Virus record (IMG/VR): IMGVR_UViG_3300028048_000045
Coordinates: 32,001 to 96,000 of that record
DNA: 64,000 nucleotides
Reading direction: 5' to 3' (one strand)
DNA from: a virus
Lineage: Duplodnaviria > Caudoviricetes
Shown: positions 5,722 to 33,771 of the stretch, one piece after another
Numbering within the stretch: position 1 is the stretch's first letter
How the letters are laid out: every line of letters begins with the position of its first letter
Notes under the pieces: model-generated
The model's database searches: none
What the model saw: only the letters and a program-made list of their open reading frames with translations
What the model was told of the DNA's origin: nothing
Position numbers and translations under genes: made by a program

Positions 5722-5870
5722 TTTAACAGGTTATAAATAAATTAAGCTCAAATTCTTTATCTTCAAATGGAATCGTGTAGTTTTCATAACTCTCCTTAGG
5801 ATTTAGTATACATCGTCGATGGTATTAGATCTTATGAGTTTAATTTGTTTTGATACCTTTAAATAAAACA

Positions 5871-5892
5871 GGTGCTGGGTAAAACCAGCACC
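5871..5892 (+). terminator. terminator of the helicase transcript
   Basis: ggtgctgg-gtaaaa-ccagcacc followed by a T-rich tract. Confidence 0.75.
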
Positions 5893-5915
5893 TTCCTTTT
5901 ACTTTTTTCTTTATT

Positions 5916-14120: not shown

Positions 14121-14224
14121 AACTGAAAGAGAGGATATAAATCCTCTCTTTTTTTCTTTATATATTATAATAATGTAAAGAATTTGTATGAGTTCTTGAT
14201 ATTATAATTTTAAGGAGAAATACT

Positions 14225-14594: not shown

Positions 14595-14607
14595 ACATTT
14601 AAATATA
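14595..14607 (+). promoter_or_regulatory. late promoter overlapping the terminase ATG
   Basis: acatttaaatata; last A is the A of ATG. Confidence 0.7.
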
Positions 14608-16781
14608 TGATACATTCAGATACAACTAATAAAAGTTTTCTTAAAATGCATTATATTTTGAAGAATATGGGTATTTCTAATAATACTTTCTTTCTTCAAT
14701 TATATGATGAAACGTTACACGACATAGACCCTCTGGATGAAGATCATTTAACTCCTGAACAAAAATTAAGAGTTCATTTGGAGATCCAGAAAAATCCATG
14801 GTACTATTTCCGTGAAATTGTTAAAATCCCTATGACTGATAGTAAGCTCGATTTTGAATTAACTCGAGCTACTCTTGCTATACTTTGGTCTCTTATAAAC
14901 GATTTACATAGTTACGTAGTAATTCCTCGTCAGTGTTACAAATCTTATACTGTAGCTTGTTTTTATTCCTGGTTAATTTATTGGGGAGCTAAAAACTTTA
15001 CAGCTGCTTTTTTTGCACAGAACGATGGACTTGTAACACAGAATCTTACTCGTGTTAAAGATATTCGTGAATCACTTCCTAGCTATTTAAATCTAAAATC
15101 TAATGCAGATACCGATAATCAACATAGTATTGTTTACCGTGCTGGAGATTTCACTAACACTGTTATAACCCGTGCCCCTGGTATGAATGAAGATGCTGCC
15201 AATAACGTTGGTCGTGGTGCTTCTACAATGGGTCAGTGGTACGATGAGTTTGCATTTATTCCTTATATTTGGGTTCAATATGGTGCTGCTATTCCTGCTT
15301 ATTCAACAGTTGCTAAAGCTGCTGAAAGAAATGGTTCACATCATCATATCATTATTACTACAACAGCTGGTAATAAAAAATCTAAAACTGGTGCTTGGGC
15401 TCATGAATTCTTACAAAACTGTGCACCTTTTACAGAATTACTTTATGATAAGTGCGATTTTGATGAATTTGGTAATCCTATAAGAGTAAATACAGATGAA
15501 GTAAAAGATTATATTAAAAACAATAATACCGGACAGCAATTCTTAAGAATAGAATATCAATGGTATGAATTGTCTAAACCAATGAATTATCTTGATGAGA
15601 TGAAGGCTCTTATGCCTGGTCTCGATGAGTTTAATCGTGGTGTATTGAATATCTGGTCAGATTCTAATGCGGATCATCCATTAGGACAAGAACGTGTACA
15701 AGCTCTTGAAGAGATGGCTATCGATCCTATGAAAATCATCATGGTTGATAAAATTTATGTTACTAAATTTTATCGCGATCCTACTCTTTGTAGATCACAA
15801 TCACAACATATTGTATTTGGTATGGACTGTGGTGGAAATACAAGACGAGACTATTCAACACTTGTTGGTGTAGATGTTTGTAACTCTGAAGTAGTATTTA
15901 CTATGCGAGTTAACCAATATTCTATTAATCGTTTTGCAAGAGCTGTAGCATACATTTTACTTTATATGTTCCCTAAATCTATACTTGTTGGAGAACGTAA
16001 CTTCGTAGGTGTACCAGTTCTTGAAACTATTGCTGAATTAATTGGAACTACTCGAATTTATAAAGATAAAGATGAACAGTTAGGTGTTTCAATGGTTCAC
16101 CATTTACGTGAAATTATGTATGGTGATGTATTGCGTGTTTCAGTAATTGAGCAAGGCCATATGATTCATGATCATACTATTACTGATGAAATTGCAGGAT
16201 TAATTACCACTAAAGATGGACGTATTGACCATAAACAGTCTGGTGGACACGATGATACATTGATTGCTTATCTATATTGTAGATGGTTCATAATGTTCTG
16301 TAAAACAAAGGGTAGATATATTGATTCTGTATTCTTTAACTCAACTCTTACTAAAATAGATATGAGTAGTGAACAAGCTGCTTATGATTATGTAATGGGT
16401 AATAAAGGAGCTGCTATGACTCTTAATGAAAGTTATAAACAACGTGATAAATCTAATGATTTTATTAGACAACAATTGAAAGCTGCTATGGATGGAGCTT
16501 TATCAAATCAGAATAATGACGAAATGTTGATGAATGATAGAGAATCATTTATTGATGTTTATGATGATTCACCAAGAATTGATCGTAATGAAATCGATGT
16601 TGATACTATCGCTGAAGATCATATGGAAGATCATCATGAATATTCTGAAAATCTTGATAAAGATGACCCAGATAAAATCGCAGCTAAAACTGAAGAACAA
16701 CGCGACACATCAAACGATCCAGTTAATATGTTTACTTTTAATTTTAAAGTAGATAATAACTTTTTCAAATCCAAATTCTAA
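14607..16781 (+). CDS. terL: terminase large subunit (phiKZ-like)
   Basis: Typical N-terminus TTNKSFL...NNTFFLQLYD...NPWYYFREIVKIP; Walker A variant PRQCYKS; Walker B WYDEFAF; ITTTAG; nuclease motifs FGMDCGG and HDDTLIA. Confidence 0.9.
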   Translation: MIHSDTTNKSFLKMHYILKNMGISNNTFFLQLYDETLHDIDPLDEDHLTPEQKLRVHLEIQKNPWYYFREIVKIPMTDSKLDFELTRATLAILWSLINDLHSYVVIPRQCYKSYTVACFYSWLIYWGAKNFTAAFFAQNDGLVTQNLTRVKDIRESLPSYLNLKSNADTDNQHSIVYRAGDFTNTVITRAPGMNEDAANNVGRGASTMGQWYDEFAFIPYIWVQYGAAIPAYSTVAKAAERNGSHHHIIITTTAGNKKSKTGAWAHEFLQNCAPFTELLYDKCDFDEFGNPIRVNTDEVKDYIKNNNTGQQFLRIEYQWYELSKPMNYLDEMKALMPGLDEFNRGVLNIWSDSNADHPLGQERVQALEEMAIDPMKIIMVDKIYVTKFYRDPTLCRSQSQHIVFGMDCGGNTRRDYSTLVGVDVCNSEVVFTMRVNQYSINRFARAVAYILLYMFPKSILVGERNFVGVPVLETIAELIGTTRIYKDKDEQLGVSMVHHLREIMYGDVLRVSVIEQGHMIHDHTITDEIAGLITTKDGRIDHKQSGGHDDTLIAYLYCRWFIMFCKTKGRYIDSVFFNSTLTKIDMSSEQAAYDYVMGNKGAAMTLNESYKQRDKSNDFIRQQLKAAMDGALSNQNNDEMLMNDRESFIDVYDDSPRIDRNEIDVDTIAEDHMEDHHEYSENLDKDDPDKIAAKTEEQRDTSNDPVNMFTFNFKVDNNFFKSKF

Positions 16782-18501: not shown

Positions 18502-18600
18502 TTTACAATGTAAACTACATTGATGCAATAATTGTGAGTTATAGCATTAAATGTTTTGTAATATTACAATTTTTTTATTTTATCCTCCGGAGGACATTGT

Positions 18601-21864: not shown

Positions 21865-22347
21865 TTAAAAAAGTTTTAAAGTTATTTTATAACAGTTAAT
21901 TCCTGTATTAACCATTGTATTGTGTACAGTAGAACCATCAGAAAGTTTATATCTTGAATTAGAAATGTTGTCTATTACCATAATAGCAAGTTTTCTAATC
22001 TTTTCAGGTTCATCATCTTTATAACGTTTGCTTAAAAGATCAAGATATTTATAAAGTTTGTTAGGTAAACGTTTTTTATAAATTTTATAATAATCAAAAA
22101 TTGATTTTCTTGGGAAATAATCTCCATTTTCATTTTTTCTTAACGAATTATAAAATTCGATGAAACTCATATGAACATCTTTTACACCATCTAACAGACT
22201 AAATTTTATATAAATATATTTTGTTTTCTTTATATTTTCAGTAACACGTAAATACTCATTACAAGTATCAGTTTTACTTATTTTTTGAATCTGTTCAATA
22301 ATATAATTAGCAATAATTTGTGCTTTGATTTTCTTAAAAATTTTCAT
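21865..22347 (-). CDS. basic hypothetical late protein
   Basis: AGGAGG SD; minus-strand late promoter at 22371-22383. Confidence 0.6.
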   Translation of the reverse strand: MKIFKKIKAQIIANYIIEQIQKISKTDTCNEYLRVTENIKKTKYIYIKFSLLDGVKDVHMSFIEFYNSLRKNENGDYFPRKSIFDYYKIYKKRLPNKLYKYLDLLSKRYKDDEPEKIRKLAIMVIDNISNSRYKLSDGSTVHNTMVNTGINCYKITLKLF

Positions 22348-22461: not shown

Positions 22462-25400
22462 ATGAAAAAAGGTAATAATTCTGGAAATGATGATTTTTCT
22501 TTTTCTACCGGTGGTGGAGACGAATTCTTTCCTTTAAATGTTGATAAAAATAATAATAAAGATACCAAAGCTCCTAAAGGAGTAAAAGGGTATCTTAAAA
22601 ATGTTGCAAAATCTGTAGTTAATCTTGGTGTTAAAACTGGAAAACATTTATATCCTGAAGCTGTTGAACTTGGTGAAAAATTTAAACCTGATACAACCTC
22701 TACAACTAATCCAAAAGCATATATTGCTAACTGGAAAGCTGAAGCTAAAAAATATACTGATATCGGTAAAGATATACTTGGAAGCGCTGTAAAAGATGCT
22801 AAAGATGCAGTAAGAACTGGTAAATTTGTAAAAACTGAAGACGAACGTAATAATGCTGAAGAAATGTTCGGTGATATGTTTGGTGATGATGGGTTCGACT
22901 TTGGTGGTGATAGTGTTTCATTTGATTCTGATATAGGTGGAGATGATTCTAATTTTAATCTCGGATCAGATGACGATAGTGGTTCTGTTGGAGCTACTTT
23001 AAATGTTGGTTCTGCTGTTGTAAAATCAAGTTACGCTAATGCAAGATTAAATACAAAACTTACTGAAACAACCAATGCTACAATAGTTGGTGCTACTCAA
23101 ACTCAAATTAAATCTGATAGAGCAATGTTTGCTCAAAATCTTGAAATTTCTCAAGAACAACATCGACAGAAAATGTTGATGATGACAAATATTGCAACAA
23201 ATATTGGTAAGATCATCGAGCAGGGAAATGTTTCTATAAAAGCTCAGATAGAATTCTCTGCTAAACAATTGGCATTCTCTCAAGATTTAGCCGCTATGGT
23301 TAAAGAAGTTAGAGATGCTCAATGGGCTCAAATTAAACCTAAGAAAGCCGGCGATGTTAAGAAATCTAAATTCCAATCTATATTTGGAAATGGCAAAACT
23401 AGCGGATTTAATCTTGGAGAATTTCAGAAACATTTCTTTAATAGTATGAAATCTGAAGCTGCTGGTGGAGCATTCGATATGCTTGGCACTGGTAAAGAAA
23501 TGATCGACATGATGATGGATATGGGTGGTGGTGCAGGTGCTTTAAAGAACATGATATCCGATATGCTCTTTGAATCTGCTGTAGATGCTATCACTGGCGG
23601 TCGATCTTCTTATGGCTCAAGATTATTAAATTCTAAACTTGAAGGGTTACCTGGTGCTGTAAATCGTAAATTAGGTTCTATATCAAAACGAGGTGCTCCT
23701 GGTTTAGAAAAACTATTAGGTAAATTACCATTTGGTATTGGAAATAAAATAGATCTAAAACAACTTGCTGGTTGGGCTCACGTAGATAACGATGTTAAAT
23801 TAAAGTCCGGCAAATATGATATGGATCCGTCAGAAGTACATCCATTTGATAATGCTGCTCATAAAGCTTTAACAGAAGTTATCCCTTGGCAACTTGCAAA
23901 AATCGATGCTGGTATCAATAGAACTGAACAAGAATTTTTTAATTACAAGAGTAATAAATGGGAAAAAGTTTCTTCTATTAGAAAACATCTTGATAGAACT
24001 AGAGAAGAAGTTCTTGAATATTCTAACGGATATAGTGCTATTAATGATCGTCTTGCTACAGGTATCGATTTAAAGAATTCTTATAAACAAATTCTTACCG
24101 AATATGAAACCAATCCTACATTCAAAGCAGGATATTATAATAAAACTTGGAATAAAGATAAAGCGCAAGCTGCAGTTAATTTAGGTACTGAAGCTAAAAA
24201 ATTCATTATGAAAAATAAGAAAACTCTTATTCATAATGTTATGATGATTGCTTCTGATGAAGAAATGGATGATGTATTAGCTTCATTACTTGATAATGAA
24301 TCTGATAATTTCCCTAGATTCTTTGAAGGGGTCCCATCTCCTACTGGAGAATTAACTGAAGAAATCGTAGCTTATTATTTATACAATACAATTAAAGAAT
24401 TTTCTAAAGCTGAACCTCAGGAATGGATTTCTTTCCAAACAGATCTGGCTAGTTATAAAAATAAATTAACTTCTAACAACTTTGAAAATGAAGATAAATA
24501 TTTTGGAGCTGGAGCAGGTATAGCTTTCGATGCTTCTATTTCTAGCGATATTTTTGAAAATGAACGTAATGAATTAAATAAACAGCGTCAAAAATTGGAA
24601 AAAAGAAAAGAAGCTTTACTTAAAAAAGATAGTAAAACTCTAAAGTTAGAATCTTTAAGTAGCAAATATTTAGGTAAAGACGTTGAAAGTGTAAAAGATA
24701 TTAACGATCAACTTAAAAAATTAAGTGCTGCTGAAAGAGATTTAAATGAACGAGAAGCTACTAGTACAACAGGTATGCTTAAAGTTCATTCTCCTTCCGA
24801 CGCTGATAAATTTATTATTTCAGATTTACACGATAGTTCTACACACGGTTTAATAAATAATATCTTTAATCTTTTGTTAACTGGATTGGATGTTTATGTT
24901 AAAAATCCTTCAGGTAAACAACACGATTACCATAAACAAATTATAGATAGTGCTCTTTCTATAAAAGAAGCTGCTATAAGAAAATCTAAAGCTTCTGAAA
25001 CTGAAGAAGATGAATCTAATGTATTCGGTGTAGATTCTGTTAGTAAAACTTTAGCAGATCGCGAGGCTTCTTTTAATTCTTCTGATAAAGCATTTGAAAA
25101 TACACTTTGGGGAAAAATACCTGGAATGAAAAGTGTTTATAGAGCTTTTAATAAAGCTACTAATGGTATTAATAATTTTGGTAACAGAATTCTTGGTGAA
25201 AATTTCTATTCTGTACATGATTCATTCCAACCTATTGATGAAAATGGTGAATATTTTAGAACAGTACTTACAGAAGAAGAACGTTCTAAATATCGCGAAT
25301 TGAAGAATCAATATGATTCTGCTCCTAAAGAAGCTAAAGATAAGATTAAATCTGAAATCAAAACTTTATTGATGAAATCAAAGAACTCTAAAGCTGCTAA

Positions 25401-28400
25401 ATCTTTAAAATTTGGAGCAAACATTTTCACATCAGCTTTCAATAGATCTGAACTTTCAAAATCTATTAAAGTTTTAGGTTCTAAACTTTCTAGAGTTTCT
25501 GTAAAAGGTAAAACTCTTGGTGAATATGTATCTGAAACTAATAATTCAGAATTGATGAATAAACTCTCTAAAGCTACATCTGTAGAAGAAAAAATCAATA
25601 TTATTAGAGATATGGGTTCTTCTAAAGCAAAAGCTTTTGCTGATGAAGCTCAGAAACAATATAATACTAATAAATCTAAATTCGATTCTGATTTTAAAGA
25701 TAGTGCAAGTGGAAAATATACTCTAGATAGTATAAAAGCTGGTTTAGGTAAGAAAATTTATAGTGGACTTTCTACTGTTCAGAATAAAGTTCTTGGTAAC
25801 GAATTAGTTAATATTAAAGATGCTAAGGGTAATAAATTAAAAGATACTCTTGCTGAAATAAATAGTCAAGTTCTTAATTATAAACTTGCTAAAGAACCTG
25901 ATCCTGCAGAAAAATGTAAGATTTTGTTAAACGCAGATTACAAAGAACTTGAACCTTTCAAACCTAAGATTGAAGAATTTAGAGCTAAAGCTCTTGAAGA
26001 TCTTAGTAATTCTGGTTCTATAAAAGGTATACTTGGAAACTTTAAAAACAAGATACTTGATACTGTTAAAAATAAAATCGGTGGAAAATTAGCAGCAATG
26101 AATCAGAATAGAATTTTATCTGGAGACCTTATCAAGTTAAAAAATAAGGAAACTGGTAAAACTATTGGACAAATTGTTTCTGAAATAAACGATCCTTCTT
26201 TAATTTTAAATCTTAATTCTGCTAAATCTGTAGATGAAAAAATCAATATTTTACTTGCTTATGATAATCCTCAATTAAACAAATGCAAACAAGATTTAAT
26301 TAAATTTAAAAAGTCTGCAGCTTCATTGGATAAATCATTCGGTGGTATAGTTGCTTGGACTAAACAAAGAGGAAAAGAAAATCTTGATAAATTCATTAAG
26401 AACACTTTAATTAAGAAATTAAAGAAAATTAAAGTTGGAGAAAAAACTCTTGGTGAAGTTCTTGGAGAAATAGCTAAAAAAGATCCTAGTTTTGGTGAAA
26501 AGATCGAATCTTTCAATACTATGACTGATTTAGCAGAATTCTTACTTCAAAGTTCTAATCCAGAATTACAACCTTTTAAGAAAGCTATTCGTGAATTAAA
26601 AGATAAACATATGGATGATGAAGCACAAGGTGGAGTAGCTGGTATTGTTGGAATGGGTCTTGTTACAGGTTTCGATATGATTAAGAAATCTATCGACGGT
26701 GTTAAGAGTTTATTTAGTAAACGTAAAAAAGATGCTAATGAAGAGTTATCTATAATTGAAAAATATGTTCATCCCGATATTATTAAATTATTTGGTGGAA
26801 CAAAAGCTACAATGGATGTAATCGATTCTCTCGGTATTGATGTCGAATTAGCTTTCAAAGATAATGAATATCATAAAGCTTCTAAACAAATTGAATTTAT
26901 TCTCGATGCTAACAAATCTGCTAAACGCCTTAATGGTAAACAGAAACGTGCTCTTAAAGGTTTGATGAGATCTGAACTTGATAAAGAAGCTGCAACAGCA
27001 TCTATCAATTCTATTAATTCAAAAATTTCATCTATAAATAATAGTTTCCAAAATGAAATGTCTAAATATGGTGATTCTATGTCTGCTTCTGAAAAGAAAC
27101 GGTTAGAAGCTATGAGAGATGAAGATCTTGATAGAGAAAATCGTAAATTAGACAAAGCTAAAAATCGTAAAGATAAAGCTTCTAGAAAAATAAATAATGC
27201 TCTTGGTGATGAAGACGGTGTAGAAGGCAATTCAGCCAGTGAACAACGTGAAGCTAAAGCTAGAGCTAAAGAAGAAAAAGAAAGAGCTAAAGAAAATAAA
27301 ATGCGTTTTGGTTTACTTTCTACATTAGTTTCAACTATTACTGGTTGGAAAAAGAAAGGATTTAAACTAGACGATGAATCTACTAGTAAAATGCAAGATG
27401 CTATTTCTGAAGGAGCTAAACAGGGTTCTAGTGAAGGTTGGTCTGGAAAGATTTCAGCATTCATGGATAATACAGGTTTAAGTAATACTAAACTTGGTAA
27501 AGGAATACAGACTGTATTAAATAAAGGTGGATCTTTTGCTAGACATATAACTGGAAATGATAAAATAGCATCATTCTTAGGAAAATCTAAGATTGGTAGT
27601 ACTGTTTTAGGAGTTGCTGGTAAATTTGGTGGTGGCGCAGCTGCTGCTACTGGTGGTTCATCAATGTTAGGTGGAGCTGCTGCTGCAGTTGGTGGCGGTG
27701 GTACAGCATTAGGTGGATTAACAAAAGTTTTACAAAAAATTTTAAGTGCGCCTAAAGTAATAGCTAAACTTGGTAAATCTGGCGTCCAAACAGTCATTTC
27801 TGGTATAAAAGATGGTGCTAAAAGAGTATTAACTAAGATATTCCCTAAATTAGCTACTTTAAACGGTATGGCTACTAACTTTGTAGGTTGGGCTGCTTTA
27901 GCAGCAACAGCAGTTACAAATTTCATTAAAGGAATGTCTAGAGCTAAAACTACATTTAATATCGGTAGAGGTTTAAGACCTACTGTTGGTATGCGTTTAG
28001 CTTGTGGTTTGGCTGCAATGCTCGATGGTGTACTTTTAGGAATACCTGGTACTATTTGTAAAGCTATGGGATTTAGAAATGCTGAAGAATGGTTCTATTC
28101 TATAGTTGGAAAAACTGCAGAAAAAGAAGCATTGAGTAGATATGCAAAATATAATAGTATGCGTGCTACTATTTTCGGTATCGATGATCCTCAGAACTTG
28201 ATAGCTTATGAAAATAGAAATCTTGAAAAAGGTGGAAATTTCTTTGATAATCTTGGTTCTGGTGCTAAACGTTTAGGAAGAGCTATTGCTAATGTAGCTA
28301 CATTAGGAATTGCTAAAAACAATGATGAAAAAGATTCACAGTTACTCGGATTCCAATCTGTTGATATTTTCAAGATGTGGAAAGAGAGAAAATATACTCC

Positions 28401-30714
28401 TCTTACTACAGAATGTGTTGATAAAGCAATTGCTAAACTTCGTGAAGAAAAGAAAGATGATCAGATTTTAGCAGGCATGGACGATAATAAACTTAAGAAA
28501 TATCTTGAGCAAATGAATGCTGTTTCTAAAGAAGATCTCGATAATAATGGAGATGGTGAAGTAGATGAGAATTCTAAAGCAGAAGCTGAAGCTGCCGCAT
28601 TGGAACATCAAACTGCTTATCGAAAGATTTATCTTGAAATTTGTCGTGCTTATGTTTTGGAAAACAAAATTGCTTGGTTGACTTCACATTGTACTCTTGA
28701 AAAATTTAAGAAATATTCTGGACAAGATGCACAAACTGACTTATCTGGTAAAGATAGAGCTAAACGTGTTGCAGGAATCCTTACTAATCCTGTAGGTTCA
28801 TTGGCTAATGCTGTTTTGAAAAAGAAAGGCGCTATAACTGAAAAAGAAGCTAAGACTGTTAAAAAAGTTGGAACTGCTTTAACTGTAGCAACAATACTAG
28901 GTGGTCCTCTTGGTGGATTACTAGTTGGTGGTGGAATAGCTCTTGTAGCTGGTGCTAAGAAAGCTTGGAAAGAACGTAAACATATTGGTAGAGCAATTGC
29001 TAATGTATTTAGACGTGGTGCTACTAAAGGTTTAATTATGGATCCATATACAAAGATGGAACGTTCAAGAATAATGAACCGTTTTAGTAATACTAAGAAA
29101 GTTCGTACTAATTTCGTTAAGAAACTTATTGAAATTGCTGATAAATATGGTGAAGGTCATATTAGTGAATGGAAAGAATTCAATGATAAACTTAGCAGTT
29201 ACAATAGTGAAATGAATCCTGGAATTGGTAAACAGATGGCTGAAACATTTGCTAAATGTGCCAATTACAAATATCAAGATGATGATGGAAATGTTACTGA
29301 TATGGTTAATACTACATTAGGTATAACTATTCCAAAAGATCATCCTGATAGAGATAACATTGCTGTCGCATCTGGTATGGTTGGTTGGGTTGCTGAATAT
29401 ATGCCTGAACTCGACGGTATGTGTCAAAGTATCTTCGGTATGACTATAAAACACTTAGCAGTTAAAATAATTGTTAAAGGTGAAAAAATAGCTAAAGCTG
29501 CAAACAACTACGAAAAATATATTACAAGACGTGCTGAAATACTTGGTGCTCCACAGGATAAACTTAAAGCTTATGAATCTGGACTAAAAGGTGGTGACAA
29601 AGCTACCGGATGGGGAAGATTTAAAGCTGGTTTCAAGAGTTTCTTCTCTAGAAAAGATAGTGATGAACTTGATTCTAATAGAATTGGATTCGAAGACGTT
29701 AAGATCTATAAGTACTGGAAACAACACAAATACGATCCTGTAATCGCTATTGAAAAACGAGTTGCTGGTAAATATGGTAAATATCTTGAGATTATTGATA
29801 AACATTGTGAAGATGTTGAAGCTCAAAATAAATTTATCAACGAATTCCTTAAAGAAGCTACTAAATACGTTAATGATAATGGATTAGCATGGCTTACAAC
29901 TAAAACAACTTTACAGGAATTTGAAGAATTAGAAAAAGATGGATTTAAATCCGGTGCAACTATAGCTGCTATCCGTGAAAAACAACAAGCTGAACTTCAA
30001 GCTAAGTTAAGTCAAACTAAACAAGGTTCTAGAAAATATAAGAAACTTCAGAAAGAACTTGAAAGAATGGGTATGTCTACAACTGGATCTACTTCTTCTA
30101 ACAATATCGATCTGAAACGTGACTTTGATGAACTTTCTGCTGAACTCATGAAAAATTATGATCAAGCAGGTTTGGCAGCTCACGAAACTGCAAGTACAGC
30201 TATTAGAGATACGATTTGGAAACCAGCTGGTGGTAACTTCTATGGAGATAATCCTGGAATGGTTGCTCGTAACGATATATCTAATATTGGTGAAGAACGT
30301 GGTGGACCAGATACATTTGGTACATTGGGTTCTACTGATAATATCAGAATTCTTAAAGAAAAAGCAACAGCCGGTGCACAGAATGCTCTTAATCAGATTA
30401 AACAAAGATCTGATAAAGTTGCTGATGGTGTAAGAAATGTTGCTAAACGAGCTCCTGGTCTTGTAGATAAGGTAGCTTCTAAAGTTTCTGTAAAACAGTC
30501 ACCGATAAATGATTTCGTAATTGATTTCAAGAACGAATTAATTAATAAATTAAATATTCTTGATGAAATCCATAGTGAACAGTTGCGTCATAATAACGTT
30601 TCTGAAGAATTCTACTCAGCATTATTAAATATGGTAGCTGTTATGGCTAAGGCACAAGGTAATCCTAGAGTTGCATCACAACTTGATGCCATGGTAAAAC
30701 AAGTGTCTAAATAA
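22462..30714 (+). CDS. tape-measure-like giant tail protein
   Basis: 2750 aa; helical K/A/G-rich with Gly/Ala hydrophobic segments and internal repeats; downstream of sheath/tube; late promoter 22409-22421. Confidence 0.7.
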   Translation: MKKGNNSGNDDFSFSTGGGDEFFPLNVDKNNNKDTKAPKGVKGYLKNVAKSVVNLGVKTGKHLYPEAVELGEKFKPDTTSTTNPKAYIANWKAEAKKYTDIGKDILGSAVKDAKDAVRTGKFVKTEDERNNAEEMFGDMFGDDGFDFGGDSVSFDSDIGGDDSNFNLGSDDDSGSVGATLNVGSAVVKSSYANARLNTKLTETTNATIVGATQTQIKSDRAMFAQNLEISQEQHRQKMLMMTNIATNIGKIIEQGNVSIKAQIEFSAKQLAFSQDLAAMVKEVRDAQWAQIKPKKAGDVKKSKFQSIFGNGKTSGFNLGEFQKHFFNSMKSEAAGGAFDMLGTGKEMIDMMMDMGGGAGALKNMISDMLFESAVDAITGGRSSYGSRLLNSKLEGLPGAVNRKLGSISKRGAPGLEKLLGKLPFGIGNKIDLKQLAGWAHVDNDVKLKSGKYDMDPSEVHPFDNAAHKALTEVIPWQLAKIDAGINRTEQEFFNYKSNKWEKVSSIRKHLDRTREEVLEYSNGYSAINDRLATGIDLKNSYKQILTEYETNPTFKAGYYNKTWNKDKAQAAVNLGTEAKKFIMKNKKTLIHNVMMIASDEEMDDVLASLLDNESDNFPRFFEGVPSPTGELTEEIVAYYLYNTIKEFSKAEPQEWISFQTDLASYKNKLTSNNFENEDKYFGAGAGIAFDASISSDIFENERNELNKQRQKLEKRKEALLKKDSKTLKLESLSSKYLGKDVESVKDINDQLKKLSAAERDLNEREATSTTGMLKVHSPSDADKFIISDLHDSSTHGLINNIFNLLLTGLDVYVKNPSGKQHDYHKQIIDSALSIKEAAIRKSKASETEEDESNVFGVDSVSKTLADREASFNSSDKAFENTLWGKIPGMKSVYRAFNKATNGINNFGNRILGENFYSVHDSFQPIDENGEYFRTVLTEEERSKYRELKNQYDSAPKEAKDKIKSEIKTLLMKSKNSKAAKSLKFGANIFTSAFNRSELSKSIKVLGSKLSRVSVKGKTLGEYVSETNNSELMNKLSKATSVEEKINIIRDMGSSKAKAFADEAQKQYNTNKSKFDSDFKDSASGKYTLDSIKAGLGKKIYSGLSTVQNKVLGNELVNIKDAKGNKLKDTLAEINSQVLNYKLAKEPDPAEKCKILLNADYKELEPFKPKIEEFRAKALEDLSNSGSIKGILGNFKNKILDTVKNKIGGKLAAMNQNRILSGDLIKLKNKETGKTIGQIVSEINDPSLILNLNSAKSVDEKINILLAYDNPQLNKCKQDLIKFKKSAASLDKSFGGIVAWTKQRGKENLDKFIKNTLIKKLKKIKVGEKTLGEVLGEIAKKDPSFGEKIESFNTMTDLAEFLLQSSNPELQPFKKAIRELKDKHMDDEAQGGVAGIVGMGLVTGFDMIKKSIDGVKSLFSKRKKDANEELSIIEKYVHPDIIKLFGGTKATMDVIDSLGIDVELAFKDNEYHKASKQIEFILDANKSAKRLNGKQKRALKGLMRSELDKEAATASINSINSKISSINNSFQNEMSKYGDSMSASEKKRLEAMRDEDLDRENRKLDKAKNRKDKASRKINNALGDEDGVEGNSASEQREAKARAKEEKERAKENKMRFGLLSTLVSTITGWKKKGFKLDDESTSKMQDAISEGAKQGSSEGWSGKISAFMDNTGLSNTKLGKGIQTVLNKGGSFARHITGNDKIASFLGKSKIGSTVLGVAGKFGGGAAAATGGSSMLGGAAAAVGGGGTALGGLTKVLQKILSAPKVIAKLGKSGVQTVISGIKDGAKRVLTKIFPKLATLNGMATNFVGWAALAATAVTNFIKGMSRAKTTFNIGRGLRPTVGMRLACGLAAMLDGVLLGIPGTICKAMGFRNAEEWFYSIVGKTAEKEALSRYAKYNSMRATIFGIDDPQNLIAYENRNLEKGGNFFDNLGSGAKRLGRAIANVATLGIAKNNDEKDSQLLGFQSVDIFKMWKERKYTPLTTECVDKAIAKLREEKKDDQILAGMDDNKLKKYLEQMNAVSKEDLDNNGDGEVDENSKAEAEAAALEHQTAYRKIYLEICRAYVLENKIAWLTSHCTLEKFKKYSGQDAQTDLSGKDRAKRVAGILTNPVGSLANAVLKKKGAITEKEAKTVKKVGTALTVATILGGPLGGLLVGGGIALVAGAKKAWKERKHIGRAIANVFRRGATKGLIMDPYTKMERSRIMNRFSNTKKVRTNFVKKLIEIADKYGEGHISEWKEFNDKLSSYNSEMNPGIGKQMAETFAKCANYKYQDDDGNVTDMVNTTLGITIPKDHPDRDNIAVASGMVGWVAEYMPELDGMCQSIFGMTIKHLAVKIIVKGEKIAKAANNYEKYITRRAEILGAPQDKLKAYESGLKGGDKATGWGRFKAGFKSFFSRKDSDELDSNRIGFEDVKIYKYWKQHKYDPVIAIEKRVAGKYGKYLEIIDKHCEDVEAQNKFINEFLKEATKYVNDNGLAWLTTKTTLQEFEELEKDGFKSGATIAAIREKQQAELQAKLSQTKQGSRKYKKLQKELERMGMSTTGSTSSNNIDLKRDFDELSAELMKNYDQAGLAAHETASTAIRDTIWKPAGGNFYGDNPGMVARNDISNIGEERGGPDTFGTLGSTDNIRILKEKATAGAQNALNQIKQRSDKVADGVRNVAKRAPGLVDKVASKVSVKQSPINDFVIDFKNELINKLNILDEIHSEQLRHNNVSEEFYSALLNMVAVMAKAQGNPRVASQLDAMVKQVSK
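25501..26590 (+). repeat. four ~100-aa protein-level repeats in the tape-measure-like protein
   Basis: Units begin KGKTLGEY (~25501), KGNKLKDTL (~25825), TGKTIGQI (~26152), GEKTLGEV (~26437). Confidence 0.7.
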
Positions 30715-30725
30715 CATATAATTTT

Positions 30726-30755
30726 AATACCTGGTGAGTTTTCTCACCAGGTATT
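30726..30755 (+). terminator. terminator after the tape-measure-like gene
   Basis: aatacctggtgag-tttt-ctcaccaggtatt. Confidence 0.85.
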
Positions 30756-30803
30756 TATTTTATGACTGAAAAACATTTTAATATACAAGATGGAGTCATA
30801 ATT

Positions 30804-31391
30804 ATGAAAATAAATAAAAATTCAGCTGCCGCTAAAGTTCCTTTTATAAAACCTAATGTTAATGTAATGTATCAGGTTGATTTTAAAAGAGATGATAGTA
30901 AACCTAAAGATCCTGAAACAAATATCCATAAATATGGATGTAACTTTATGTGTTGTTTAGCAGTACCTCAATTTATGAATAAGAAAAAATTATTACCTTC
31001 TCAAATAATCGATATTTATTTATATGCTAATAAAAGCGGATGGCTTGAATATGATTGTACAGTAATTAGTCCAAATGAAATTATGAATTATGCTGCACAA
31101 CTACTAGGTGATAAAAAATATAGATACTCTAATGTTTTTGTTAAAGGTATTGCTTCTGGTGCTGATTGGAACGTATCAAATTATCAACATACTAGCGATC
31201 TTCCTGGAAATGGAAATATTTATTTCTTTATTGTAGATTTCTTAACAGGTAGTACTGGTAATTATGGTGGGCACCATTTTGAACTATATAACTCGATTGG
31301 TACACTTATGTACGATCCAGCTAATTGTACAGTACATAAATACAAAGGTGTAGATAAAATTTCTTGTTATAAAGTTTCTTTTAAAAAATAG
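30804..31391 (+). CDS. DUF261-like / C39-like cysteine peptidase
   Basis: IHKYGCNFMC...ISPNEI...HHFEL...MYDP (Cys-His-Asp pattern); ATG 30804 follows GGAG and lies downstream of late promoter 30773-30785. Confidence 0.6.
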   Translation: MKINKNSAAAKVPFIKPNVNVMYQVDFKRDDSKPKDPETNIHKYGCNFMCCLAVPQFMNKKKLLPSQIIDIYLYANKSGWLEYDCTVISPNEIMNYAAQLLGDKKYRYSNVFVKGIASGADWNVSNYQHTSDLPGNGNIYFFIVDFLTGSTGNYGGHHFELYNSIGTLMYDPANCTVHKYKGVDKISCYKVSFKK

Positions 31392-31405
31392 ATATTTTTG
31401 ATTGA

Positions 31406-31600
31406 ACATATAAATATACAAATTCACAAACCTGCATCCTGACGTCTTTTTGGTCTTTCAATTGTCATTTTTTTCATTTAAATCCTCCTATAAATTTTTT
31501 TGAAATTACCCATTGGTAAGAGTTTTCGTGAATTTTCTCTTATCGATGGCAAAAAGCTTTTAGTCTTTTTGATAAAGCGGGGCAGTTAATTCTGCCCCGT
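31406..31600 (+). ncRNA. candidate late structured sRNA with anti-SD segment
   Basis: Perfect late promoter with no plus-strand ORF downstream; 13-bp stem with two G-U pairs that work only on +; 7-bp stem; terminal GC hairpin. Confidence 0.5.
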
Positions 31601-31656
31601 ATAATTTTTGTTCTGATGACAAAATGATATACTATAAATAAAAAGAGGTCATATTT

Positions 31657-33771
31657 ATGGCTAGTTCATATCAAGAAAATTTTAATCCTGATTCTACAGA
31701 TTTAAATTACAATTTAGGATTACATAATGTTGCTATTATAGATACCGAAACTGGTAAACCTATAGATATCACAAGTATTTCAGATTCTTTTAGACTTGCA
31801 AGAAATAAGAATGATGGAACTGTTTATAATAAATATAACATGGATTCTAATTTACTTGCAGGATTTATTGAAGATCCTGAAGAAGGTTTAAATGCAGTTT
31901 CTTGTGTAGAAGCTTTAGGTTTATATACAACTAGTTATATTAATGATAAAATAACTGGTAAAGATTCCGTATTACAAAAATCGATTAATAGTGATCCTAC
32001 TAAGTTAGATATAACTCCAGATTTGGAAGATAACTTAACCTTTAAAACTTATTTAAAAGGTGGTCCGTTTGTTAGAAATTATGATAATAGTCCTGTAAAT
32101 GATGCCGAAGTATCAGATTCAGACTATGCAAGTACTGAAAAATATAAACGTTTAGCTCCACACTTAGGTATTGGTTTAGGTGAAGCAACGATATTAAATC
32201 CACAATTCCAATTCAATAAACGTGATGATCCTAGAACTAATCCAGTTTATACTAAGATTGGAAGAATTTATTCTTCTGAAGTTATGAATAACTGGCCTAT
32301 AGTTTTATTCCAACCTGGAAGAATTAAATATCATACAGGATTCTTTAAAATGCTTGGACTTGGTTCCGGGGCAGGTATGAATGAAACTTTAATTCGTACT
32401 GGTGGAGAAGGATTGTTAGGAGTTCTTTCTAAACTTTGGACTGGTGTAACAGATATTTTAGGTGTGGTAGGTTCTATAGGTTCTGCTATATTTGGTGGAA
32501 ATAAAGTTATTGAATTTAGGCAGGCTAGAAACCTATTCAAACAATATGTAGAATTTCTTTGGAAAGATTTAGCAACAATTATGGGACTTTATACAGATAA
32601 TGGATATTGTGGTTCTATTAAAGATCTAGATCTTAATAAAGTTATACCTACAAATATTATGAATGCTGAAGGTGGATCTGGAGTAAATGTTTTAAACGAC
32701 CAATTTATTTCTTTCAGATGTTCTAAAGATGTAATTGGATCTGAATCATTTTCAAACTCTACAGAAACTAACCCATTGATGGAAAGTATGAATGCTACAG
32801 CTGCTCAAAATGATGATGCTAATCCTAATAGTGGTGAAACTGGATTAGGTGCTGTTACAGCTGGTGTTAAAAAATTAGGTTTGAAAATGGCTTCTTCATT
32901 CTCAGAACAAGCTGCAGTATTATCTGGAAAAGGACGAATTACATTACCGGATGTATTCTCATCAAGTTCTTTCTCTAGAACATTTACTTGCTCATTTAAA
33001 TTTCATTATCCGTACGGTGATCCTATGGGTAAATTTGAAAATCTATATATTCCATTTTTAACATTACTTACTATGAGTGCTCCTAGACAAATTGGTAAAA
33101 TGTCTTATACATCACCATTTGCTGTAAGAGTATTCGTTAAAAATAAAATTATGATTAATTATGGAATGGTTGAATCATTATCTGTAACTCGTGGTGGAGA
33201 TGGAAATGATTGGGGTCCAGATGGTTTCCCAAAAACAATGTCTGTTGAAATCAATATTAAAGATATGGAACCTAATATTAGTTTACCATTAGCATCTCGT
33301 GGGCCAGTTCGTATGGCTTTGGAATCAATGTTCCCATCTTGTGGTATTTCTGAATATTTAGCAACACTTGGTGGTTTATCACTTGATGATATGACACATA
33401 ACTTCCGTAAATCGCATTTCAAACGTGCTGGAATGATGTTTGTAAATGCTTGGAAAGCTAAATTAGATCCATCAAACATAGTATCGTCAGTTACTAACAC
33501 TAGAGCAATTTCTAATATTATAGGTTTATTCTCTTCAGTAGATTTCGATACTTATAATTCTCTTGGTAATTTTGCTAAAGAAAATGCGGATCAAATTTTG
33601 AAAAACACAGCTAATGTAAAATTTGCAGCGCCATCATTTGGTTACCATTTCGTAAACAGATCTGGTGGAGATGGTTATAATGAAATTGCAAAGATACATA
33701 AAGCTGATAGTGAATCTATTTCAGCAATTTCATCTGAATTTACAAATTCCAACTATCCTGAAATAAAATAA
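31657..33771 (+). CDS. virion structural protein (baseplate hub/tail-associated, probable)
   Basis: Late promoter 31619-31631; PYGD...YIP...YTSPF...GMVESLSVTRGG...INIKD pattern typical of jumbo-phage tail/baseplate proteins. Confidence 0.55.
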   Translation: MASSYQENFNPDSTDLNYNLGLHNVAIIDTETGKPIDITSISDSFRLARNKNDGTVYNKYNMDSNLLAGFIEDPEEGLNAVSCVEALGLYTTSYINDKITGKDSVLQKSINSDPTKLDITPDLEDNLTFKTYLKGGPFVRNYDNSPVNDAEVSDSDYASTEKYKRLAPHLGIGLGEATILNPQFQFNKRDDPRTNPVYTKIGRIYSSEVMNNWPIVLFQPGRIKYHTGFFKMLGLGSGAGMNETLIRTGGEGLLGVLSKLWTGVTDILGVVGSIGSAIFGGNKVIEFRQARNLFKQYVEFLWKDLATIMGLYTDNGYCGSIKDLDLNKVIPTNIMNAEGGSGVNVLNDQFISFRCSKDVIGSESFSNSTETNPLMESMNATAAQNDDANPNSGETGLGAVTAGVKKLGLKMASSFSEQAAVLSGKGRITLPDVFSSSSFSRTFTCSFKFHYPYGDPMGKFENLYIPFLTLLTMSAPRQIGKMSYTSPFAVRVFVKNKIMINYGMVESLSVTRGGDGNDWGPDGFPKTMSVEINIKDMEPNISLPLASRGPVRMALESMFPSCGISEYLATLGGLSLDDMTHNFRKSHFKRAGMMFVNAWKAKLDPSNIVSSVTNTRAISNIIGLFSSVDFDTYNSLGNFAKENADQILKNTANVKFAAPSFGYHFVNRSGGDGYNEIAKIHKADSESISAISSEFTNSNYPEIK

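Follow-up and report, generated by a model that had tools for sequence, protein, structure and literature searches.

The plus strand between a DUF261-like gene and a virion structural gene of a gut jumbo phage very probably carries a stand-alone non-coding RNA gene of about 195 nt, which is predicted to extend from position 31416 to about 31610. The RNA gene was judged very likely to be real; promoter class, terminator, covarying fold and purifying selection all favour the plus strand. As the best explanation we propose a late anti-Shine-Dalgarno (anti-SD) repressor sRNA of a new phage family; for gene and mechanism taken jointly, the case appears evenly balanced. A first-pass annotation of this DNA had described a stand-alone late plus-strand RNA of about 185 nt. 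In silico, promoter, terminator and covariation bear out this description, and the predicted length is now about 195 nt. The same annotation suggested a translational repressor. Of this suggestion the plus-strand RNA gene and the exposed CCUCC were retained, while the named target was rejected and the repressor role is what we infer.

Genome and gene neighbourhood

The analysed window (64,000 nt) comprises bases 32001-96000 of a 276,071-bp IMG/VR record (29% G+C, rated 99% complete). Within it the RNA locus sits in the block of tail and virion genes. The proteins of the neighbourhood are ~25% identical to those of phiKZ-, AR9- and Staphylococcus-type jumbo phages, and a nucleotide search of GenBank phages gave no match at DNA level. 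The DUF261-like gene was taken to start at 30804 and not at 30762, because a late-promoter site lies at 30773. A gap of 265 nt separates this gene from the 704-aa virion gene. The following features were assigned:

18601: tail sheath-like protein
20721: tube-like protein (tail)
22462-30714: 2750-aa protein
30804-31391: DUF261-like 195-aa protein (weak Pfam match, 22 bits against a cut-off of 26 bits)
31405-31416, plus strand: AR9-type late promoter, AACA (-11 to -8)-TATAAA-T (-1)-A (+1), predicted start at 31416
31416-31428, plus strand: conserved 5' block AUACAAAUUCACA, of which 31420-31427 (AAAUUCAC) is complementary to the SL1 loop
31429-31464, plus strand: variable G-poor linker, length ~17 to 50 nt in relatives
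31465-31499, plus strand: pyrimidine-rich anti-start block with U-run, CAU (31475-31477), UUAAAU, CCUCCU (31484-31489) and AUAAAUUUUU, predicted to be single-stranded
31510-31549, plus strand: stem-loop SL1 with a 13-bp stem (31510-31522/31537-31549) and an invariant 14-nt loop UUUUCGUGAAUUUU (31523-31536)
31550-31571, plus strand: hairpin SL2, CAAAAAG/CUUUUUG, 7 bp (31550-31556/31565-31571), followed by the conserved linker AUAAA(A/G)
31577-31612, plus strand: intrinsic terminator with a 9-bp stem (31577-31600), seven G-C pairs and the U-rich tail ATAATTTTTG
31618-31629, plus strand: separate late promoter of the 704-aa virion gene, GACA-N6-T-A, marking the 3' limit of the RNA
31657-33771, plus strand: 704-aa virion structural protein (matches to phrog virion structural proteins)

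Promoter classes

Two classes of phage promoters were read from a listing of all upstream regions, class A with TTTATATATTAT-N6-G and class B with xACA-N5-ATATA. Class A matches the early consensus of phage AR9, AAATATATATTAT-(6N)-G (PMC5312081), and class B matches its late consensus, A(-11)ACA-(6N)-U-A/G(+1) on the non-template strand (PMC5449584). In the genome, ACA-N5-ATATA occurs in 64 copies, 54 of them within the intergenic 9.3%, and nearly all sites lie 30-57 nt upstream of a start on the same strand. The late motif precedes the genes of the tail sheath, tail tube-like, 2750-aa and virion proteins. For two genes it reads ACA-N5-ATATA-TG, which puts the predicted start two bases ahead of the ATG; near-leaderless late genes are predicted here.

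At the RNA gene, the AR9 late consensus is fitted perfectly by AACA at 31405-31408, the spacer TATAAA, T at 31415 and A at 31416. This site is one of about nine orphan late motifs with no gene within 60 nt. It is kept across the relatives, and substitutions are confined to the spacer; the late promoter of the 704-aa gene is conserved in relatives as well. The promoter-like 13-mer reported earlier for 31406-31418 (ACATATAAATATA) is present at exactly these positions. Its classification as a perfect late promoter agrees with the genome-wide late motif, but the type is that of AR9 and not the T4-type TATAAATA. A copy of the late motif was also found at 31619, where a promoter of the next gene had been placed. 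The T4-type box TATAAATA itself was rejected as a promoter: the octamer occurs at chance level, since base composition predicts ~62 copies per strand and 83 and 64 were counted.

Fold and terminator

Folding of both strands, which the first-pass annotation had recommended, gave z = -5.0 for the plus strand, with none of 200 shuffles as good, against z = -2.3 for the minus strand. The earlier description of a 13-bp stem with two G-U pairs, a 7-bp stem and a GC terminator holds in every coordinate, and CAT (31475-31477) and CCTCCT (31484-31489) were read where it had located them. In a terminator scan, 31577-31600 was the first terminator after the stop of the DUF261-like gene (31391). No other one was detected between 30755 and 31577, and the preceding one (30726-30755) ends the 2750-aa gene. 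The region is therefore necessarily the 3' UTR of the DUF261-like gene.

Regarding known RNA families, no match was obtained for the whole window at the Rfam gathering thresholds. With permissive thresholds, the best match was the L20 leader with 19 bits, where 58.7 are needed (E = 0.26). The RNA, which matches no Rfam family, is read as a new phage sRNA family with the putative function discussed below.

Conservation in related phages

Scans of IMG/VR and JGI yielded the close relatives L002/L008 and L003 and the distant relative L009. A large protein collection was searched with the 704-aa protein, and contig look-ups added gut-metagenome contigs with amino acid identities of 91-93% (L031, L033), 80-81% (L034, L036, L037), 77% (L039) and 47-54% (L040-L044). 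A final IMG/VR scan added L050-L054. With a pattern scan of IMG/VR for 5' block plus loop, two known relatives were real matches and 17 other matches were due to chance.

Nine distinct sequences, from the window and eight relatives, were aligned from predicted start to terminator (alignment A4), and pairs were counted on a structure specified by us. Covariation in related phages had been proposed as a check, and it was found: 96.5% of the cells form standard pairs, against 42-52% with partners slid by 1-3 columns. Changes on both sides were counted for 11 pairs, a value reached by none of 500 shuffles; since the nine sequences are related, such shuffle statistics overstate significance. The slid controls and the G-U orientation hold up despite this relatedness. 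In SL1, compensatory double changes occur in 5 of 13 pairs, with pairing in 98.3% of the cells. All nine sequences keep a U-G at position 5 of this stem, one of its two G-U pairs; it would be a C-A mismatch on the opposite strand and therefore fits the plus strand only. For the terminator, compensatory changes were found in 6 of 9 pairs, and all cells (100%) pair. SL2 never varies, its six pairs being invariant in A4.

Identity to the window was compared for the relatives with 77-81% amino acid identity. In the neighbouring gene it is 55-60% at 4-fold synonymous sites; the 5' block reaches 85-100% and the 3' domain 72-82%, but the linker 31429-31464 only 17-38%. With the conserved blocks above and the linker below the identity of synonymous sites, purifying selection thus acts on the blocks and not on the linker. 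The window, L002 and L003 share UAAAUCCUCCUAUA without any difference, and eight of the nine homologues retain CCUCCUA. Variants of the 5' block are AAAUUUAC (L036 type) and AAAUUCACG (L039 type). With a covariance model built from A4, a single copy (E = 4.5e-29) and no paralogues were detected in the genome of the phage itself. Among the distant relatives it recognized L040 (E = 2.8e-6), where SL2 is also recognizable, and none of the others.

The same slot arrangement is kept in seven lineages with 47-54% amino acid identity (L040, L041, L042, L043, L051, L053 and L054): a late promoter AACA-N6-T-A/G, 120-200 nt without conserved ORF, a terminator and then the late promoter of the virion gene. 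The RNAs of these slots cannot be aligned with that of the window, L040 excepted. The slot is missing from L009/L050, L044 and L052, and in L009 the flanking genes are only 17 nt apart. Hence, the RNA is accessory and not essential to the phage family.

The anti-SD motif

Motifs were counted from predicted start to terminator foot in eight lineages, the majority with non-alignable RNAs (1,199 nt in all), with the expectation calculated from the slots' own composition. In sense direction, CCTCC was found in 10 copies against 0.38 expected (26-fold) and CTCC in 17 copies against 2.3, and these 1,199 nt contain no copy of GGAGG or GGAG. CCUCC is the core of the 16S rRNA 3' tail (PMC6288834). Several RNAs of distant lineages carry two to three copies of (A/G)CCUCCUUU, the form found in this tail. 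Partition-function folds gave an unpaired probability of CCUCC of 0.72-1.0 in all nine alignable homologues and mostly >0.9 in the distant lineages. Thus, an exposed CCUCC is predicted as a shared trait of the slot RNAs across lineages. By a rough count by eye, CAU lies 0-9 nt upstream of the motif in ~8 of 17 cases against ~3 expected, so that the exposed stretch complements an SD plus AUG. The exposed anti-SD/anti-start sequence of the first-pass annotation is upheld as a prediction for CCUCC, which is modelled as unpaired in all homologues and is the sole feature common to the non-alignable RNAs.

The CCUCC of the sense strand also resembles the SD of a minus-strand gene, with an ATG at workable spacing in several lineages.

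Target search and second seed

Gene 21865-22347 had been named as a possible target. The match of 12+8 nt is real, but it reflects generic SD similarity, and the gene ranks no better than flank-shuffled seeds. It was rejected as target: its start region changes in the relatives L028 and L030 while the RNA is unchanged. In the closest relative the site reads T-GGAGGATTCAACC, with the RNA unchanged there, and in the L003 phage it is GGGGGAATAATATG. A 39-nt seed was also scanned against all 234 phage start regions, together with 25 controls with flanks shuffled around a fixed CCTCCT. No outlier was detected among these start sites; the best duplex had -24.1 kcal/mol, compared with -24.5 +/- 2.1 kcal/mol for the controls. 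An earlier scan with a 93-nt region had resulted in long imperfect duplexes. A search for complements of three conserved blocks with up to two mismatches yielded nothing decisive, and inspection by eye revealed no extended complementarity of the anti-SD to the SDs of the two flanking genes.

A difference was observed between the promoter classes. The SDs of genes directly behind early promoters are predicted to pair more strongly with an anti-SD 9-mer than those of late-promoter genes, at -8.9 and -7.3 kcal/mol (Mann-Whitney p = 1e-4); the 13-nt block of the RNA itself gave -8.45 and -7.37 kcal/mol (p = 0.0015). The stronger SDs behind early promoters fit a general anti-SD action.

The 5' end of the RNA offers two further pairings. 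AAAUUCAC (31420-31427) is complementary to GUGAAUUU in the SL1 loop (31528-31535) over 8 bp with -8.0 kcal/mol. A C-G pair is changed to U-G in L036 and one G-C pair is added in L039; otherwise the pairing is invariant, and in L040 the sequences of 5' block and loop are absent together. This is consistent with a pseudoknot, for which the available sequences hold no double change. Furthermore, positions +1 to +10 of the RNA (AUACAAAUUC, 31416-31425) are perfectly complementary to GAAUUUGUAU. Five early-gene leaders have this 10-mer in their promoter-proximal hairpin, and GAAUUCGUAU, with one mismatch, occurs in three others. Eight copies of the GAAUUUGUAU 10-mer exist in the genome, five in early leaders and one in the RNA gene itself. 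The duplex of 5' seed and leader has -10.5 kcal/mol, against -3.9 to -4.9 kcal/mol for the leader hairpins. In a dinucleotide-shuffle test with an over-permissive leader set, at least three leaders were matched in 11.3% and at least five in 1.05% of the shuffles, with four observed; p was interpolated as ~0.03-0.05 from these two tallies only. Both the 5' seed and the early-leader sequences are kept in the closest relative. In G003, an 89-kb relative record, the RNA is non-alignable and the leader hairpins are different. Pairing of the 5' seed with early leaders is regarded as a lead.

Proposed mechanism

The proposed repressor sRNA would be transcribed late in infection by the AR9-like non-virion RNA polymerase of the phage and ended by the intrinsic terminator; the sequence of the whole unit is also the 3' UTR of the DUF261-like mRNA. 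In the G-poor, largely unpaired 5' half, CCUCCU and a CAU close to it would be displayed as complement of an SD-spacer-AUG region, and the 3' half, made up of the hairpins SL1, SL2 and terminator, would serve as scaffold. The exposed CCUCC could then pair with the SD regions of mRNAs and block binding of the 30S subunit; mRNA decay may be triggered as well. The strongest action would be expected on messages with strong SDs, i.e. host mRNAs and early phage mRNAs. We infer accumulation of the RNA, its action in trans and the choice of targets, with CCUCC/SD pairing as the best available mechanism.

In a wider interpretation, which we consider unlikely, the RNA would be a phage copy of the ribosomal anti-SD tail that reprograms translation late in infection. 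Coating of strong SDs would silence host and early phage mRNAs, and late mRNAs might escape via weaker SDs or the predicted near-leaderless starts. The second seed AUACAAAUUC may add specificity for early-gene leaders, and the invariant SL1 loop, bearing the same complementary site as these leaders, could be an internal mimic masking the 5' seed until a target displaces the loop.

To our knowledge, almost nothing has been charted of the regulatory RNAs that virulent and jumbo phages possess, and we know of none described for gut AR9-like phages. If the proposed action is true, a phage with its own polymerases would also steer the message choice of the host ribosome by means of an RNA. Early genes and the host would then be shut off in a manner that differs from the protein-based mechanisms of T4 and phiKZ. 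Metagenomic jumbo phages can be annotated for this RNA with the covariance model and with the slot rule of a late promoter, 120-200 nt and a terminator closely preceding the virion gene.

Alternative explanations

The only ORF on the plus strand is a 29-aa TTG frame without SD, which is stopped after five codons in L003. It was rejected, and the earlier statement that the unit contains no plus-strand ORF is confirmed in so far as this sole frame is not conserved. On the minus strand, a mini-gene (SD AGGAGG, ATG at 31477) might be translated, with the plus-strand RNA as its cis-antisense regulator. Type I toxin-antitoxin pairs and P22 sar are models for such a regulator. The minus strand does present a perfect SD-6 nt-ATG-AAA-AAA, and in many lineages an ATG lies 1-8 nt from the antisense GGAG. 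The reading frames are not maintained, however. Lengths of 17, 12, 6, 6, 5, 7, 24 and 33 aa were found, L039 has no start, and the frames of distant lineages comprise one to two codons. The frames past AGGAGG are MKKMTIERPKRRQDAGL (window), MKKNDN (L002), MKKNENLKTKRR (L031), MKKMKI (L033) and, read by eye, MKKRQ (L034) and MKNDIQK (L037), besides 33 aa with a 14-nt spacer in L003 and 24 aa in L036. The sole shared peptide stretch, CEFVYLYV, results from reading the plus-strand promoter in reverse, and both compensatory changes and G-U pairs speak for the plus strand. The minus strand of the unit contains neither a class A nor a class B motif, and its sigma-70-like sites are at chance level (7 vs 8 +/- 3). 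A translated mini-gene is considered highly improbable. The 17-aa minus-strand peptide under antisense control, the alternative given in the first-pass annotation, gained no support, as this ORF occurs in the window phage only and no minus-strand promoter was detected for it. Regulation of the 704-aa virion gene in cis was also considered. Conditional read-through would add a long regulatory 5' UTR, so that the unit would act as leader or attenuator. In every lineage possessing it, the unit is the direct upstream neighbour of the virion gene, and long 5' UTRs of up to 491 nt are known from AR9 (PMC5312081). Against this, the terminator is immediately followed by a conserved late promoter of the virion gene itself, the anti-SD block is by eye not complementary to the SD region of this gene, and the folds contain no alternative anti-terminator pairing. 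Such a leader is very improbable.

A further explanation assumes a structured 3' UTR or terminator module which stabilizes or insulates the mRNA of the DUF261-like gene, without any role in trans; the internal promoter would merely add copies of the stabilizing end. The location argues for it, with 31577-31600 being the first terminator of this gene. Moreover, a second structured element bearing CUCC is situated in the 3' UTR of a helicase gene (5722-5892) and has no late promoter of its own; its fold has z = -6.95 and leaves part of UUUUCAUAACUCUCCUUAGG in an open loop. Nevertheless, no part of the unit is better conserved than the late promoter together with the first 13 transcribed bases. 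L042 and L054 keep promoter, RNA and terminator although a different gene, or one on the opposite strand, precedes them, and a pure stability element leaves the enriched and exposed CCUCC unexplained. We regard this module as rather unlikely. The motif itself would be accounted for by a decoy, in which the (A/G)CCUCCUUU copies mimic the 16S rRNA 3' tail and titrate a protein or nuclease acting on it, e.g. an anti-SD-removing toxin or a ribosome-associated factor. Two to three copies of the 16S-tail form CCUCCUUU in distant relatives and the lack of a specific mRNA target among the 234 phage start regions point in this direction. Toxins cutting off the 16S anti-SD, described according to the title of PMC12274833, agree with it. 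On the other hand, the gene neighbourhood indicates no partner protein, and the motif of the window, AUCCUCCUAUA, diverges from the 16S tail past CCUCCU. The decoy is speculative and quite improbable.

Comparison with known systems

The proposed late anti-SD RNA appears most like the C-rich-seed sRNAs of Gram-positive bacteria and the antisense RNAs of P22 and P1 that occlude ribosome binding sites. RoxS/RsaE and RNAIII of S. aureus are C-rich-seed regulatory sRNAs of low-GC Gram-positive bacteria. The resemblance concerns the free-standing transcript, the intrinsic terminator and unpaired C-rich motifs pairing with G-rich SDs. In contrast to these sRNAs, the phage RNA has no sequence or Rfam relation to them, is encoded by a virulent-type jumbo phage and is driven by a late promoter of a phage polymerase. 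Instead of UCCC or CCC, its motif is the complete CCUCC(U) core of the anti-SD, which in some of these RNAs is present more than once.

P22 sar, c4 of P1/P7 and lambda OOP are phage antisense RNAs which occlude ribosome binding sites. They too are small phage-encoded RNAs complementary to an SD and start region. Their target is a defined phage gene opposite or nearby, whereas here the opposite ORF lacks conservation and none of the phage start sites emerges as cognate. sRNAs of the DapZ and MicL type are embedded in 3' UTRs and have their own promoter. The present RNA likewise has its terminator in common with the upstream mRNA, and its internal promoter closely follows the stop codon. DapZ and MicL are bacterial, Hfq-dependent and driven by sigma factors; the present one is a phage RNA with a promoter for the phage polymerase.

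With AR9 the phage has a common late grammar, AACA-N6-T-A/G(+1), and a common early grammar, TATATTAT-N6-G, as the early consensus is also written (PMC5312081, PMC5449584). AR9 also makes non-coding antisense late RNAs; those described in the accessible text of these papers are antisense to genes, with no structured intergenic anti-SD RNA among them (PMC5312081, PMC5449584). The 16S rRNA 3' tail is similar in its exposed motif, the anti-SD core, of which relatives carry ACCUCCUUU-like copies (PMC6288834). Unlike this tail, the phage RNA lies outside the ribosome, and it would compete for SDs or mimic the tail.

Early leaders, Shine-Dalgarno strength and start regions

The small RNA, the predicted ~195-nt plus-strand RNA with an exposed CCUCC core, begins with 10 nt that are the exact complement of the 5' arm and loop of a hairpin in early-gene leaders. 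This promoter-proximal hairpin is formed by the shared 5' start of an early transcript family, G(U/A)A(A/U)AGAAUU(U/C)GUAUGAAUUCU. Examples are as follows (window-relative coordinates above 64,000 lie in the same record beyond the window):

14175-14200, +, early-gene leader
86409, -, early-gene leader
98626, -, early-gene leader
169574, -, early-gene leader
217712, +, early-gene leader

In the whole phage genome, Shine-Dalgarno (SD) sequences are clearly stronger directly behind early-type than behind late-type promoters: for directly adjoining genes the mean duplex with ACCUCCUUU was -8.9 versus -7.3 kcal/mol (p = 1e-4). The tail sheath-like gene has an SD adjoining its own complement within a palindrome of the start region, and therefore self-pairing or dimer pairing of this region is possible.

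18575-18600, +, palindrome CCUCCGGAGG

Further elements with anti-SD sequences

There is a second highly structured element (MFE -54.1 kcal/mol, z = -6.95).

5722-5900, +, structured element in the 3' UTR of a helicase-like gene

Like the small RNA, it contains the complement of an SD-spacer-AUG, UUUUCAUAACUCUCCUUAGG, which is followed by a terminator. The element lacks its own AR9-type late promoter and gave no match to the small RNA's covariance model.

The CCUCC motif of the small RNA is displayed in another manner by the RNA in the equivalent position of a distant relative (IMGVR_UViG_3300032007_000245, ~1130-1180). In this RNA a GAAUUC/GAAUUC stem surrounds a small GCAU/AUGC hairpin, whose loop of 5 nt is one CCUCC.

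Late promoter motifs and transcript starts

For the DUF261-like gene directly upstream of the small RNA the longest ORF begins at 30762. Since a late promoter motif (30773) sits within this ORF, the true start is most likely ATG 30804, giving 195 aa; this start is called in all relatives.

In two late genes the promoter motif is fused to the start codon (ACA-N5-ATATATG).

14595-14609, +, fused motif
213634-213648, +, fused motif

According to the AR9 rule, +1 is located two bases 5' of the AUG, so both mRNAs would be near-leaderless.

Besides that of the small RNA, other ACA-N5-ATATA late promoter motifs have no close start on the same strand.

8731, 18489, 44372, 49017, +, orphan motifs
170044, +, orphan motif beyond the window
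157942, 166147, 174915, -, orphan motifs beyond the window

Their distance to the next same-strand start is 77-1114 nt. These motifs may indicate long 5' UTRs, overlooked small genes or additional non-coding RNAs.
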